Source of the DNA: an uncultured Ignavibacteriales bacterium
GTDB lineage: Bacteria; Zixibacteria; MSB-5A5; GN15; JAAZOE01
Direction: 5' to 3'
Length of the DNA: 64,000 nt
NCBI GenBank assembly: GCA_964611355.1
Contig: CAZSYD010000007.1
Location: forward strand, 1 to 64,000
The first letter of the stretch is position 1. The number at the start of each line of letters is the position of its first letter. Positions 5,510 through 64,000 of this stretch are shown piece after piece. Below the pieces are notes generated by a model that saw only the letters and a list, made by a program, of their open reading frames with translations, did no database searches and was not told where the DNA came from. Made by a program: the position numbers and the translations under genes.

Positions 5510-6676
5510 CTAATCTGCGTCCCTGCCGCTTTCAATCGCTTCGACCAGTTCAGCCCCTCGCGACATTTCCTCAATCTTTTCCCAATCCAGGCCTAAGGAC
5601 ACACCAAGCGAACGGGCCGCTTTTATCATTTGCGAATCAAACGGAACCGTCCTGACTTTGCCTTCTACGTCTCCCAGCGGGATAGACATTATATCGTTGC
5701 CCTTCAGGACCACCAGGCGGCCATACTTTTTCTGCGCCACCAGCCGGACAGCCTCGCAACCGAAATAGGTCGCCAACAGGCGGTCAAAAGGCGTTGGCGA
5801 TCCTCCCCGGACAAGATGACCCAATATGGTAACCCTGGTTTCCAAACGGGTAAGAGCTTCAATCTGTAAAGCCAACCGATTCGATACGCCCCCCAACCGA
5901 ACGGCATCGGGCGAGTTTTCCACCATCCGCTTGATAATCATTTCACCGCCTTCGGCTTTGGCGCCCTCGCCGATAACCACTATCGAGAAATTTTTGCCCA
6001 ATCGGTTGCGTTCCTTAATCTTCTCGCAGATCACATCGATATCGTATGGTATCTCCGGAATAAGGATTATGTCACCCCCACCGGCCAGCCCGGAGGCCAA
6101 GGCAAGCCAGCCCGCGTAGCGCCCCATTACTTCGACGATCATAACTCGATGATGCGATTGAGCGGTGGTATGAATCTTGTCAATGGCCTCGGTAGCGGTA
6201 ACCACTGCGGAGTCAAAACCAAAGGTTTGATCGGTACCGAACAAATCATTATCAATCGTCTTGGGAACACCGACAATATTGATTCCGATCTTACTCAAAC
6301 TGGCCGAAGCGTTCATGGTACCATCGCCGCCGATGGCAATTACGGCATCGAGACCAAGCCGCTCATAATTGGCGGTTAGATCCGCCGACCTGTCAAGATA
6401 AATATATTTATCTTTCTGTAGTATGGGAAAATTAAACGGGTCGGCTCGATTGGAAGTTCCAAGTATCGTTCCCCCCAAAGACAGGATGCCCGAAACCGAA
6501 CCTTTGTCAAGAGTAATATAATTATTCAGTATCAATCCTTCATAGCCATCTCTGAAGCCGATGACCGACATATTGTAGTCGTGAATGGCAGTCTTTACCA
6601 CCGCTCTCAGAACAGCATTGAGACCCGGACAGTCACCGCCGCCTGTTAAAACACCTATCTTCAATTTATCCTCCAT
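5510..6676 (-). CDS. pfkA: 6-phosphofructokinase (group III), predicted ATP-dependent
   Basis: GGGDCPGLN, IGGDG, PKTIDND and VEVMGR motifs. Confidence 0.93.
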   Translation of the reverse strand: MEDKLKIGVLTGGGDCPGLNAVLRAVVKTAIHDYNMSVIGFRDGYEGLILNNYITLDKGSVSGILSLGGTILGTSNRADPFNFPILQKDKYIYLDRSADLTANYERLGLDAVIAIGGDGTMNASASLSKIGINIVGVPKTIDNDLFGTDQTFGFDSAVVTATEAIDKIHTTAQSHHRVMIVEVMGRYAGWLALASGLAGGGDIILIPEIPYDIDVICEKIKERNRLGKNFSIVVIGEGAKAEGGEMIIKRMVENSPDAVRLGGVSNRLALQIEALTRLETRVTILGHLVRGGSPTPFDRLLATYFGCEAVRLVAQKKYGRLVVLKGNDIMSIPLGDVEGKVRTVPFDSQMIKAARSLGVSLGLDWEKIEEMSRGAELVEAIESGRDAD

Positions 6677-59535: not shown

Positions 59536-60714
59536 CTATTTTAACCCGAACAGGCGTTTGATGAATGATCGTTTCCCGGGCGGCTTTTCAGCTCTCAGGG
59601 GCGGTTCCATTCGCGGCGCACCCGTCGGGGTTACATTCCTTTCCGGTTGACTATCTCCGCCAAATGCAGCGGCCGCTTCAGAATTGCGGGCAATACCGAC
59701 GCTACCGGAATCCAAGGGCCCACCTATACGAGCGGAGTCATGATGTCTTCTCCGATTCATCCGCTGTTCATCCTCCATCGTATTTCCAGGGAAGGGACGA
59801 GACACCGGTTCAACCCTGACCGAGGGTTGAACATCCGGTTGAGCGGGCGCCGGTTGCCGGGGTTCCGGATTCCGGACAACTTCCTGTCTTACCGGAGTCA
59901 ATTCCGGCTGAGGCACCGGTTGGCGCGCAACGGGGGCGACCGTCTCCTGACGAATATGCTCCGGACGTGCGGGCTCCTGATATACCGGTTCACTAATTTC
60001 CTTATAGGCCGCCTGGACAGGCAGAGGCAGAGGCTGAGATATTGGTCGAGGGGGCGGCGAGACCGCTGCAGGTTGCGGCTGCGTCGGTTGCGGCGCTTGT
60101 CCGGCGGCAGTTGCAGTGGACGGAACGGTACCGCCCGATTTGGCCTTTTCCAGAACCAGCTTCAGAATACATTTCAAAGTATCAAATACGCCGAACCCTT
60201 CGGTGGCCGAAGCCCTAAATTCCATCCAGCCGTGCGGATTAATCGTCGGGTTCATCTGCTCCGGGGTAAGAATTCCGGGCAGATCTTGTTTGTTATATTG
60301 AATAACGACCGGTATATCTTCCAATTTATATCCGTACTCAGTCAGATTTTCCTTGAGATTATTAAACGATTCGATGTTTTCATCCATTTTGTCGGGTTGA
60401 GAATCGGCCACAAAAACCAGACCGTCAACCCCTCGCAGAACCAGTTTGCGGGTAGCATTATAATACACCTGCCCGGGGACGGTATAGAGCTGAAACTTGG
60501 CGGCAAAGCCGTTTATAGTACCGATATTTATCGGTAAAAAATCGAAGTAGAGGGTCCGATCGGCATCGGTGGCAAGCGAAATCAGTTTCCCCTTGGTATC
60601 CGGGGGAACCTTTTTATGGACATACTGCAGGTTGGTCGTCTTGCCCGATAAACCCGGCCCATAGTAGACAATCTTGCAACTGACCTCTCTGGAGGCGTAA
60701 TTTATTGAAACCAT
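59536..60714 (-). CDS. mglA: MglA-family small GTPase with a ~200 aa C-terminal extension
   Basis: YYGPGLSGKTTN (G1), DRTLYFDF (intrinsic Arg), TVPGQ, NKQD and SAT. Confidence 0.93.
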   Translation of the reverse strand: MVSINYASREVSCKIVYYGPGLSGKTTNLQYVHKKVPPDTKGKLISLATDADRTLYFDFLPINIGTINGFAAKFQLYTVPGQVYYNATRKLVLRGVDGLVFVADSQPDKMDENIESFNNLKENLTEYGYKLEDIPVVIQYNKQDLPGILTPEQMNPTINPHGWMEFRASATEGFGVFDTLKCILKLVLEKAKSGGTVPSTATAAGQAPQPTQPQPAAVSPPPRPISQPLPLPVQAAYKEISEPVYQEPARPEHIRQETVAPVARQPVPQPELTPVRQEVVRNPEPRQPAPAQPDVQPSVRVEPVSRPFPGNTMEDEQRMNRRRHHDSARIGGPLDSGSVGIARNSEAAAAFGGDSQPERNVTPTGAPRMEPPLRAEKPPGKRSFIKRLFGLK

Positions 60715-60724
60715 CTTTCCGCTT

Positions 60725-61075
60725 TCACTTAATCGCTTCCTGCCGGCTTAGCTTGCTAATCGCGTTTTTGATCTCCAGTCGAACCAGTCCGATGTTAACC
60801 TCCGGTTCCGCCACGACAACCAGAATGCCTATTTCGGCATCGCAGAAAAACATCTTGGCATTATCGGCTTCAATCGTCACCTGAGTCAGTGGCCTTGATT
60901 CAAGACGCTCCAGCGACTTTTGAATATTGGAGGTTATGGACGCGGCAAGGGCACCGATGGCTTCCTCATCATACCGGGTGTTGAGATCGGCTGCGATCAC
61001 AATTCCATCGTTGCCCACGACCATGCTGCCGATGATCCCGCTTGTTTTGTTTAATACCTCAAGAATTTGATACAT
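60725..61075 (-). CDS. Stand-alone roadblock/LC7 protein
   Basis: GIIGSMVVGNDGIVIA...IGALAA...NIGLVRLEI; GGAGG RBS before ATG 61075. Confidence 0.88.
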   Translation of the reverse strand: MYQILEVLNKTSGIIGSMVVGNDGIVIAADLNTRYDEEAIGALAASITSNIQKSLERLESRPLTQVTIEADNAKMFFCDAEIGILVVVAEPEVNIGLVRLEIKNAISKLSRQEAIK

Positions 61076-62063
61076 AGCGTTCCTCCGCCCTGGCAAACAT
61101 CGCCGGGCTATACCGTTCACTCATATATTTTCGAACCATATCCGCCGCCTGGGCAATGCGGATATGGATTGTTTCATCGATATCCCTATCCGCCAGAATC
61201 ATCAGATTTACGTGTTCAATACGCCTTAGGATTACCCTTATTCTGTGTGTGCTCAGGTCTATTCTTTCCGCTGATTCCTTGTGTTCGAACCGCTCCAGCA
61301 GGTCACGGCAGGCCTGTCTTAACATGATTGCCAGAGGGGCCCACATTTCAACATCGTCGCCGTTCCGATCATAGCGGGCCAGAAGCAACCCTTCCTCGTC
61401 AACCAGCAAAGCCATTTGGACGGCGTTTAATTCGCCGAGGTAAGCTACAGCCCTCTCAAACTGGTTTTCATCGGCGGTATAGGCTGACGCCTGAGCGCCC
61501 GCCCTGACGCTATTCGGGACCGCCTCTTCTCGCCGGTCGTTAGCCGTTCCCCCGCCGACCGCAATCTCGTTCACGGCCGGATAAGCCTGATATTTGGTCG
61601 GTATATTGTCCGGGTAAATGACCGGCTTGGAAGCCGGTTCGGCACGGGAGGTTTTTTCTTTCCCGGCAGGCATCATTTGTTCCGCCAGACTCAGGTAAAA
61701 CGGTCGCATGATGAATGGAGCCGCGATTACGTGCAAAATCACTCCGGGCAGATATTTTGTCATACCGAGCGAGAACGAAACGGAACTACCAAGACCGTAC
61801 ATTATAATTATGGCCAGTCCAAAGGCCGCTCCCAAAGCCATCCGGTATACAAGCGTTAAGGCCGAACTGACCATCAGGGCAGCCAGCGTGGTCTCGCGGC
61901 GGAAAAGAAAATAAACAAACCCGTAAAAGAGAAATTCGTAAAGCATATTAACAGCCGAGCCGCCGGCCAGCGGCAATCCCAGGCGGTTGGGGAAAATGAC
62001 AATAGGAATGACCACCAGGATCAACGAGAACAACAAAATCAGTCGTCTGCTATTTTTATCCAT
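61059..62063 (-). CDS. Membrane protein (about 4 TM) with a C-terminal roadblock-like domain
   Basis: Hydrophobic first ~125 aa, a low-complexity linker, then VQMALLVDEEGLLLA... roadblock pattern. Confidence 0.75.
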   Translation of the reverse strand: MDKNSRRLILLFSLILVVIPIVIFPNRLGLPLAGGSAVNMLYEFLFYGFVYFLFRRETTLAALMVSSALTLVYRMALGAAFGLAIIIMYGLGSSVSFSLGMTKYLPGVILHVIAAPFIMRPFYLSLAEQMMPAGKEKTSRAEPASKPVIYPDNIPTKYQAYPAVNEIAVGGGTANDRREEAVPNSVRAGAQASAYTADENQFERAVAYLGELNAVQMALLVDEEGLLLARYDRNGDDVEMWAPLAIMLRQACRDLLERFEHKESAERIDLSTHRIRVILRRIEHVNLMILADRDIDETIHIRIAQAADMVRKYMSERYSPAMFARAEERYVSNS

Positions 62064-63086: not shown

Positions 63087-63449
63087 TTATCCCAAAACCT
63101 TGCGGGTTTGGAATAATCCTATAAACCAAAGCGTTACCGTGGCCAGATACATTATTCCCGCTACGTCAAAAGTAATGGTAAAAAAGCCCAGTTTTTCGGC
63201 AAGAACAAATACCTGACCCGCCGCCAGGGTAATAAACGATACGACGAACAACTGCCAGCCTCGGGCCAGAGCCCCGCCCCTGACCAGTCCAAGCAACTTA
63301 ATCGCGACGCCAAGACAGGCTGCCGCGCCGATCAGGATGATTAGATTCAGCATCACCGGTACCTGGGCCAGGCTGGAAAAATCAGCGGCTGCGGCGCGAT
63401 TGGACGACAGGAAAACGATCGCCGCCGCGGTTATCAAAAGTTTACGCAT
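63087..63449 (-). CDS. Small membrane protein (signal-like N-terminus + 3 TM)
   Basis: Hydrophobic ORF translationally coupled (TAATG overlap) to the upstream gene. Confidence 0.65.
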   Translation of the reverse strand: MRKLLITAAAIVFLSSNRAAAADFSSLAQVPVMLNLIILIGAAACLGVAIKLLGLVRGGALARGWQLFVVSFITLAAGQVFVLAEKLGFFTITFDVAGIMYLATVTLWFIGLFQTRKVLG

Positions 63450-64000
63450 TATGACGCACCTGTAAGCATTTTAACGGTTCGTTCGGCTTTCCGGATCGAG
63501 TCATAAAGGTTTTCGTCCAGCCGATATTTCTTAACCAGTTCACGACGCAACGCCAATGGCTCGGAGATTTCCTTTTTCACGTGGCCGATGGCCTCATGGA
63601 ACAGTTCCTGTCCCAGACGGTCAAAAATATATTCGAGCTGCTGGTGAAGCATATCTTCGAGCACGGTAAGCAGCCTATGCAAGCGCACCGATTCCGGAAT
63701 CTTTCGCGCCTCGGTCAGGAACTTTTCGAATGACGGCCCCGAGTCCGACCTTATATCCCAACCGGGGAAAAAGACCAATACCCCGTGACGGAAACCCGAC
63801 ATAAACCGAGAATAGTCGGGATTGGACACCCCTACCATACTTTCTACTACTTTGCGAATCCTCAGAAAGCAGGCGTTGTAAAGCCTGAAAATAATGCCCA
63901 AGATGATTTCTTCTTCATCCTCTCCGGGGCCGATATCCTCGCCCGAAGCCCGCCCAGCGCCTTCCACCAGGCCGCTAACAACCAGCTTATACAAGGCCCG
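63449..64000 (-). CDS. C-terminal part of a hypothetical protein, possibly DUF4388(PatA-N)-type; starts beyond the window
   Basis: Open frame to the window edge; RALYKLVVSGLVE resembles the winged-helix end seen in DUF4388 proteins. Confidence 0.5.
   Translation of the reverse strand, partial: RALYKLVVSGLVEGAGRASGEDIGPGEDEEEIILGIIFRLYNACFLRIRKVVESMVGVSNPDYSRFMSGFRHGVLVFFPGWDIRSDSGPSFEKFLTEARKIPESVRLHRLLTVLEDMLHQQLEYIFDRLGQELFHEAIGHVKKEISEPLALRRELVKKYRLDENLYDSIRKAERTVKMLTGAS

Follow-up and report, generated by a model that had tools for sequence, protein, structure and literature searches.

The closest described relatives of the protein considered here are the group 1 MglA GTPases of Myxococcus xanthus and Thermus thermophilus (Protein Data Bank entries 5ymx, 6h17 and 3t12), whose genes adjoin one encoding the Roadblock protein MglB and lie beside type IV pilus genes. 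In the accessible parts of the literature, MglA is described as having an intrinsic arginine finger and a catalytic glutamine (PMC4316618) and a Thr in place of the usual Asp of the PM3 motif (PMC3000849), and the bacterial protein is called "cytosolic" (2026 preprint, 10.64898/2026.07.23.738820). Solved MglA chains comprise 195-203 amino acids (aa), in agreement with the canonical length of about 195 aa given in a preliminary description of the present locus. Here, we report a comparative analysis of a 392-aa MglA encoded in a 64,000-nucleotide stretch of DNA, referred to below as the window (positions 1-64,000 of contig CAZSYD010000007.1, assembly GCA_964611355.1, from an uncultured Ignavibacteriales bacterium; GTDB lineage Zixibacteria; MSB-5A5; GN15; JAAZOE01). 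Its G domain, with the same P-loop, R53, T78 and Q82 as in the described proteins, is followed by 197 residues that these lack, with a membrane-type peptide at the end. There is a strong comparative case that this MglA would be held at the membrane by the MinD-like peptide at its C-terminus, which sits on a linker predicted to be disordered.

In the hypervariable region of eukaryotic Ras and Rho proteins, such as K-Ras4B and Rac1, a variable, flexible C-terminus carries a polybasic cluster and a terminal lipid anchor. The window protein has the same layout, from the G domain through a flexible region and a polybasic cluster to a putative hydrophobic terminal anchor. It differs in that its tail contains no cysteine, its linker is about ten times longer and its origin is independent. 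Arf/Sar1, the Asgard Arf-like GTPases, archaeal ArcoA and SR-beta, small GTPases that belong with MglA to the MglA-Arf side of their superfamily, bind membranes via their own helix or transmembrane segment, according to the available portions of PMC11914678, PMC3521125 and the preprint 10.64898/2026.07.23.738820. Their anchors, however, are N-terminal and adjacent to the G domain, a position that in Arf couples exposure of the helix to GTP, whereas the candidate anchor described here is C-terminal and distant. SofG, an MglA paralog of M. xanthus, works through bactofilins and has an N-terminal extension. The window protein, in contrast, has no such extension, and its tail is far longer, with a MinD-like end. 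SofG, which positions PilB and PilT, is described as a 239-aa protein with additional sequence outside the G domain (PMC4316618).

The reference survey of prokaryotic small GTPases, published in 2014, excluded sequences longer than 240 aa, as stated in its available text (PMC4316618), so that long MglA forms were filtered out before analysis. No description of an MglA with its own membrane anchor was found in the accessible parts of the literature searched, which did not extend to subscription journals; within that literature, a membrane-tethered long MglA would be an apparently undescribed variant of a well-known switch.

Residues 3-195 of the window protein match residues 3-195 of M. xanthus MglA (5ymx_A) without a gap (E = 1.9e-77), and the same residues of the G domain match T. 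thermophilus MglA (3t12_A; E = 1.7e-72). The MglA-like start, MVSINY, and the alignment of residue 3 with residue 3 of MglA indicate that there is no N-terminal extension. R53 (in DRTL), T78 and Q82 (in YTVPGQ) are in register with 5ymx; R53 and Q82, numbered as in M. xanthus, are the residues that we take to be the arginine finger and the catalytic glutamine, respectively. Together with the P-loop and NKQD, these three residues are invariant in an alignment of 74 homologs. The terminal helix of the G domain ends in LKLVLEKAK (aa 184-192), where the preliminary description had placed it, and leads into a linker rich in Pro, Gln and Ala, with 197 residues beyond the G domain in the same frame; positions 59536-60140 encode the tail (aa 192-392 and the stop codon). 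Thus, the G domain is that of an MglA by every sequence test except that of size: the 392-aa protein falls outside the range of about 190-240 aa for a single-domain form, which, in the available text of PMC4316618, is a filter of the survey and not a biochemical property. This long form is the sole MglA in the genome, which is 96% complete.

The protein terminates in KRSFIKRLFGLK. This end reads FIKRLFGLK after a polybasic run and has FxKRLFG in common with the C-terminus of Escherichia coli K-12 MinD (KKGFLKRLFGG; NC_000913.3, b1175), a likeness already pointed out in the preliminary description; the homolog consensus, KKRGFFKRLFG, is closer still to the E. coli peptide. Homologs were drawn from a collection of 5.8 billion proteins, where the matches amounted to at least 8,000 clusters (215-686 aa), and the best 120 (284-421 aa) were examined. 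All but one of these 120 end in K(K/R)(S/G)F(F/I/L/W)(K/R)(R/K)LFG plus two residues, the exception being a 284-aa protein on a 2.5-kb contig, and 112 conform to the strict pattern F-x-K-[RK]-LFG plus two residues. In the alignment of 74 sequences, L388, F389 and G390 are invariant, and K381, R382, F384, F385, K386 and R387 are each conserved in at least 90%. The end is therefore conserved in orthologs despite the variable linker, as had been anticipated.

Within the window genome, an end of the loose F.[KR][KR]LF type is found on three of the 9,837 stop-to-stop frames of at least 80 aa, and the long MglA alone ends in FxKRLFG; judged by the homologs and by these frame counts, the occurrence of this end is above chance. 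No protein in this genome scores above the TIGR01968 cut-off for MinD (best score, 53 bits against 212.9), so that the MinD-like peptide is found there only on MglA. The seven matches below the cut-off all lie outside the MglA locus, which encodes no deviant Walker A ATPase domain.

According to PMC8155659, the peptide of MinD forms an amphipathic helix with established lipid binding. As in MinD, and in membrane-targeting sequences of the FtsA type, the peptide described here occupies the extreme C-terminus, follows basic residues and includes a short predicted helix. Unlike in MinD, the carrier is a Ras-like (TRAFAC) GTPase instead of a ParA/MinD ATPase, the peptide comes after a linker of about 185 residues and a basic run that is stronger than in MinD, and there is no ATP-driven dimer by which the peptide would be doubled.

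The same kind of peptide appears in other settings. Three unrelated Sel1-repeat proteins of about 1,070-1,140 aa (P0135, P0147 and P0160) contain five to eight internal copies of (K)KKGFF(K/S/A/G)RLFGK with acidic linkers between them, and two smaller proteins (P0165 and P0170) contain two or three copies of the MinD-like peptide. Beyond MinD and MglA, then, the peptide is a module that recurs and can be repeated, and its repetition in the Sel1-repeat proteins is the behavior of a generic, weak and additive module.

The long form of MglA is the norm across the phylum and is conserved. MglA was detected at E <= 1e-20 in 268 of 285 species genomes of the phylum to which the window belongs, including 194 of the 198 high-quality ones, most genomes having a single match. 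Among the 150 matches listed, 148 are in open frames of 313-461 aa; in the other two (G145 and G091) the frame runs off the end of its contig, so that neither counts as a genuine short form. Within the phylum, then, orthologs do not stop at about 195 aa, the alternative named in the preliminary description. When one genome was taken from each of 10 other families, all 10 encoded a long MglA (317-476 aa). The named relatives are mostly labeled Zixibacteria and some Ignavibacteria; one homolog is recorded at NCBI as "MglA (modular protein)", so that an annotation pipeline has flagged the extra length.

Next to no credence can be given to an artefact in which loss of a stop codon, a frameshift or faulty assembly fused non-coding sequence to a normal 195-aa MglA. 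We found nothing in support of such an origin, and overlap with antisense open reading frames (ORFs) is common in GC- and Pro-rich sequence. The in-frame motifs conserved at 119 of 120 homolog ends and the long frames throughout the phylum speak against it, as do the tight gene junctions (10 nucleotides upstream and 16 downstream). In addition, the gene is covered at 99% or more by contigs of four other metagenome runs, which show no indels and six substitutions, none of which creates a stop. A search of sequencing runs listed 24 matching DNA runs and no RNA run. A lost stop or frameshift was accordingly rejected. A 296-aa antisense ORF (59647-60537, plus strand) lies opposite the tail coding region and is most likely a by-product of its Pro- and GC-rich composition.

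Beyond the close homologs, the chemistry of the C-terminal end is retained while its sequence drifts. All 10 long MglA proteins from the other families lack RPxPG (a tail motif described below) and have a Lys/Arg run and then a Phe/Trp/Leu-rich end in which the sequence in common with FFKRLFG consists of short Phe/Leu-rich fragments, and the same polybasic, Phe/Trp/Leu-rich end is found in deeper-branching species representatives (L023-L033). In 28 such ends, the median net charge of the last 20 residues is +7.5 (range 3-11), against +2 in short MglA proteins. Conservation of this kind is expected for an end that contacts an acidic lipid surface and is not expected for a specific protein interface.

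The tail between the G domain and this end is predicted to be predominantly disordered, as the preliminary description, which gave its length as about 200 aa, had proposed. With the end included, it is 197 aa long, and it is Pro-rich (aa 196-378: 19.7% P, 11.5% A, 9.8% R, 8.7% Q, 8.7% V and 8.2% E), with 18% bulky hydrophobic residues in this part compared with 37% in the G domain. An AlphaFold2 model based on 74 homologs shows no secondary structure in aa 196-300 and 331-366, with predicted local distance difference test (pLDDT) values of 46-59. Neither Pfam nor NCBIfam has a match in the tail. The absence of cysteine from aa 196-392 implies that there is no CAAX box and no lipidation, and that the anchor would consist of peptide alone.

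Outside three conserved islands, namely RP(F/Y)PG, PxMAPS and the C-terminal end, the tail is unalignable among the 120 homologs. The first two islands, like the cluster of type IV pilus and Roadblock genes described below, had been missed in the preliminary description. In the first island, R306, P307, P309 and G310 are invariant in 74 sequences, and RP[FYLW]PG is found in at least 112 of the 120 homologs; the second island, in which P371 is invariant and P367 and M369 are conserved in at least 90%, is found in 118. Among the homologs, the first island lies 81 residues from the C-terminus (standard deviation (sd) 5.6) and the second 24 (sd 1.1), while the median distance from the G domain to RPFPG is 111 residues (sd 18.7). 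Because the islands hold their distance from the C-terminus and the first spacer varies more, the length of the tail seems, from the alignment, to be counted from its C-terminal end and not from the G domain. In five relatives (L011, L014, L015, L019 and L025), an additional motif, (E/D)RRIT(V/M)SDFQ, is located about 15 residues past RPFPG.

These distances bear on the idea of an Arf-like switch, in which the terminal helix or that after RPFPG would fold onto the G domain in one nucleotide state and be freed in the other, making membrane binding nucleotide-dependent, a possibility raised in the preliminary description. The helix next to RPFPG has higher pLDDT in the full-length model (73/84/73 over three blocks) than in a model of the tail alone (76/66/55), a contrast that is a hint at most because the underlying alignments differ (74 and 15 rows, respectively). 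Such a switch is rather improbable, given that the motifs keep their distance from the C-terminus instead of from the G domain, that the G domain and the first motif are some 110 variable, Pro-rich residues apart, and that deep-branching families without RPxPG retain the basic hydrophobic end.

The composition of the tail also brings to mind Pro-rich polar organizers: it could serve as a scaffold or condensate region whose basic end binds nucleic acid or polyphosphate and not lipid. The predicted lack of structure, the richness in Pro, Ala, Gln, Arg and Glu, and a net charge of 0 in aa 196-378 and +6 over the last 20 residues would all fit this role. We consider it very unlikely in view of the Phe/Trp/Leu-rich end in every family, the transmembrane anchors of relatives described next, and the construction of the gene cluster around membrane machines.

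The G domain was also compared with MglA proteins of other lineages. At least 600 stretches matched, of which the best 80 species-level loci were examined and placed in a quick IQ-TREE phylogeny, rooted at the midpoint with no outgroup. In this tree, 25 forms including that of the window make up one clade (support by the Shimodaira-Hasegawa-like approximate likelihood ratio test (SH-aLRT), 97), which adjoins 30 short forms (189-209 aa) from Gemmatimonadota and Krumholzibacteriota (SH-aLRT 83). A separate clade centered on Planctomycetota (SH-aLRT 99) has a segment of transmembrane strength in six of its seven complete forms, at the C-terminus in four and inside the tail in two, with Kyte-Doolittle means of 1.9-3.65 over 19 residues. 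Six Planctomycetota-labeled proteins with a hydrophobic tail segment (L060, L063, L084, L088, L053 and L067; ORF start at 6001) are 356-462 aa long. In all four Planctomycetota loci that were checked (L060, L063, L084 and L088), a Roadblock gene follows the MglA gene, and in three of the four a TPR protein precedes it. A Fibrobacterota clade contains four long forms whose ends are likewise basic and hydrophobic, though more weakly so (net charge +3 to +4), and in both loci checked there (L037 and L059) the long MglA gene lies between an upstream PATAN gene and a downstream Roadblock gene. These Roadblock and PATAN neighbors indicate that the loci are true MglA/MglB modules.

In the same Fibrobacterota clade, nine Fibrobacter loci (L064, L071, L074, L075, L081, L083, L085, L087 and L089) encode MglA-like proteins of 313-331 aa that start with MSSINF. 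They have a different conserved C-terminal motif, an acidic run followed by ELRPY-PKK, and their end is non-hydrophobic.

Taken together, the retained chemistry of the drifting end across the phylum, the similar ends in Fibrobacterota and the transmembrane segments in Planctomycetota favor lipid binding over binding of a specific protein partner. If the C-terminal peptide instead docked onto a particular protein, such as the TPR-Roadblock protein, PilB or the membrane Roadblock protein encoded nearby, membrane association would be indirect. The TPR fold often binds short peptides, a TPR protein is conserved in the cluster, the other conserved short motifs of the tail resemble protein-binding sites, and the amphipathic order of the peptide is not significant, all of which would suit such docking. 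We nevertheless regard it as unlikely. In all 10 families, the end drifts in sequence yet keeps its charge and aromatic residues, which is unusual for a specific interface; Planctomycetota relatives have a transmembrane segment in the same position; and MinD, as well as the unrelated proteins with internal repeats, carries the same peptide.

The reading that we favor, and hold to be probable from sequence comparison, is that the tail constitutively and flexibly tethers to the membrane a GTPase that governs the polarity of type IV pili. Several observations weigh against it. The predicted terminal helix is short (aa 384-388), with pLDDT of about 70-76 in both the full-length and the tail-only models. 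The preliminary description had likened the end to the amphipathic helices of MinD and FtsA, but an amphipathic helix is not shown by the order of the residues: at the 0.05 level, the hydrophobic moment of the last 14 residues exceeds that of shuffles of the same residues in none of 28 relatives (median fraction of shuffles with a moment as high, 0.62), and in the window protein the C-terminal segment does not have the top moment, either in the whole protein or in the tail. The moment of the eight-residue core is 0.67, compared with 0.55 in E. coli MinD. Amphipathicity by moment was therefore dropped as evidence, and the distinctive feature of the end is its composition and its MinD-like sequence, not a demonstrable amphipathic order. 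Furthermore, a single E. coli MinD peptide is too weak without dimerization, whereas the longer Bacillus subtilis MinD peptide suffices as a single copy, according to the available text of PMC8155659; in a monomeric GTPase, the extra basic residues may or may not compensate for a single weak peptide of the E. coli type. A loose classifier of such ends passes 158 of the 2,209 long frames in the window genome (7.2%), a rate at which the Fibrobacterota cases are weak and tentative.

The full three-motif tail, moreover, is confined to the order of the window. The profile of the three islands matches 65 of 121 sampled genomes, the window's own included. By family, it is found in all eight sampled genomes of f1, 44 of 45 of f2 and all 11 of f4 (63 of 64 in total) and in neither of the two of f3; elsewhere, there is a single weak match (f9) among 54 genomes. 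With the tail profile, a search of 1.84 billion representative sequences found no other enzyme family that carries the tail. Its 56 matches at E <= 0.001 are mostly short fragments matching at the C-terminal end, along with two full-length long MglA proteins.

Under the tether model, the last 16 or so residues, comprising the polybasic run and FIKRLFGLK, would bind directly to the acidic inner leaflet in the manner of MinD, the basic run strengthening an anchor made of peptide alone. The roughly 185 disordered residues would act as a leash with a contour length of about 70 nm and, by a polymer-scaling formula, a mean reach of about 10 nm. On this leash the G domain could diffuse in two dimensions near PilB, PilT, PilC and the membrane-spanning Roadblock protein. 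RP(F/Y)PG with its helix (about 81 residues from the end) and PxMAPS (about 24) may dock partners at set distances from the membrane. The tail would work like the hypervariable region of eukaryotic Ras and Rho, on an MglA paired with its cognate MglB. Most likely, tethering is constitutive or set by the charge of the lipids, possibly with a dependence on acidic lipids, and does not follow the nucleotide state.

The sequence features noted in the preliminary description are thus all confirmed, and its proposal of a membrane-tethered GTPase is retained in one part. The tether is backed by the comparative evidence (its prevalence in the phylum, the retained chemistry of the end and the transmembrane segments of Planctomycetota). 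Nucleotide-dependent membrane binding is unsupported because nothing connects the G domain to the anchor over about 190 flexible residues.

It is conceivable, if somewhat doubtful, that C-terminal membrane tethers resembling the Ras hypervariable region arose several times independently on GTPases of the MglA family (a polybasic MinD-like peptide in this phylum, similar ends in Fibrobacterota and transmembrane tail anchors in Planctomycetota) and that, in this phylum, the tether with its two motifs at set distances from the membrane replaces cytosolic polar recruitment. If so, membrane-tethered small-GTPase signaling would be a recurrent prokaryotic design and no eukaryotic invention, and the MglA/MglB cycle would run in two dimensions on the membrane beside the type IV pilus motor. 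A phylum with its sole MglA tethered, along with other anchors in two phyla, would change the view of how prokaryotic small GTPases are placed and would provide a natural parallel to the membrane targeting of eukaryotic Ras, Rho and Arf. The tail motifs at fixed distances may also point to new partners of the type IV pilus machine.

The gene for the long MglA is part of a conserved cluster (Table 1) with the order ComEC, PATAN, small hydrophobic protein, TPR-Roadblock, transmembrane Roadblock, Roadblock, long MglA, MglB, PilB, PilT, PilC and PilS-like kinase, and the window carries this order up to its edge. In 13 of 13 related loci examined, the cluster is recognizable from the order and size of the ORFs, with a different downstream region in L029 and one upstream ORF fewer in L030; its domains were confirmed by Pfam in two loci. 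This conservation ties the MglA module, which includes an integral-membrane Roadblock protein, to the type IV pilus motor.

Table 1. Coordinates of the long MglA gene, the parts of its product and the neighboring genes in the window
Feature	Position	Strand	Basis or remarks
Long MglA coding sequence	59536..60714	-	392 aa and stop; stop codon at 59536-59538
MglA G domain, aa 1-195	60130..60714	-	P-loop GPGLSGKTT, R53, T78, Q82, NKQD
Variable Pro/Ala/Gln-rich spacer 1, aa 196-304	59803..60129	-	Unstructured in model; length varies in homologs
Conserved island 1, RPFPG (aa 306-310) and predicted helix (aa 313-328)	59731..59802	-	Alignment and AlphaFold2
Variable spacer 2, aa 329-366	59617..59730	-	Alignment and AlphaFold2
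Conserved island 2, P-x-M-x-P-(S/P)-L-(K/R) (PxMAPS), aa 367-374	59593..59616	-	Alignment
Polybasic stretch and MinD-like hydrophobic end, aa 377-392 (KPPGKRSFIKRLFGLK)	59539..59586	-	Predicted helix aa 384-388
DUF4388 (PATAN) protein, C-terminal part	63449..64000	-	Synteny only; N-terminus outside the window
Small hydrophobic protein, 120 aa, about four hydrophobic segments	63087..63449	-	Syntenic in relatives; no Pfam or NCBIfam match
TPR and Roadblock protein, 302 aa	62085..62993	-	Pfam
Membrane protein, 334 aa, hydrophobic segments aa 8-26, 69-87 and 108-126, C-terminal Roadblock-like region	61059..62063	-	Hydropathy
Small Roadblock/LC7 protein, 131 aa	60725..61120	-	Pfam 2.9e-12; 10 nucleotides upstream of mglA
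MglB-like Roadblock protein, 162 aa	59031..59519	-	Robl_LC7 9.1e-14; 16 nucleotides downstream of mglA
PilB-type type IV pilus extension ATPase, 567 aa	57261..58964	-	T2SSE 2.3e-136, MshEN 4.3e-17
PilT-like ATPase, 364 aa	55970..57064	-	Pfam
PilC-type platform protein, 399 aa	54758..55957	-	T2SSF 7.3e-64
PilS-like histidine kinase, 573 aa	53000..54721	-	6TM_PilS, PAS, HisKA, HATPase_c

The 162-aa MglB-like protein matches the MglB model NF052242 with an E-value of 2.4e-26 and 92.7 bits, under the 200-bit cut-off. The 334-aa membrane protein could be a membrane receptor or regulator of MglA; the window's copy has no match in Pfam or NCBIfam, and its syntenic ortholog in L017 contains Robl_LC7 (Pfam, 2.5e-5). 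Pfam detects nothing in the part of the PATAN gene that the window holds. In relatives, the PATAN (DUF4388) protein is about 400 aa long (L020:2115-3317 and L017:1977-3182).

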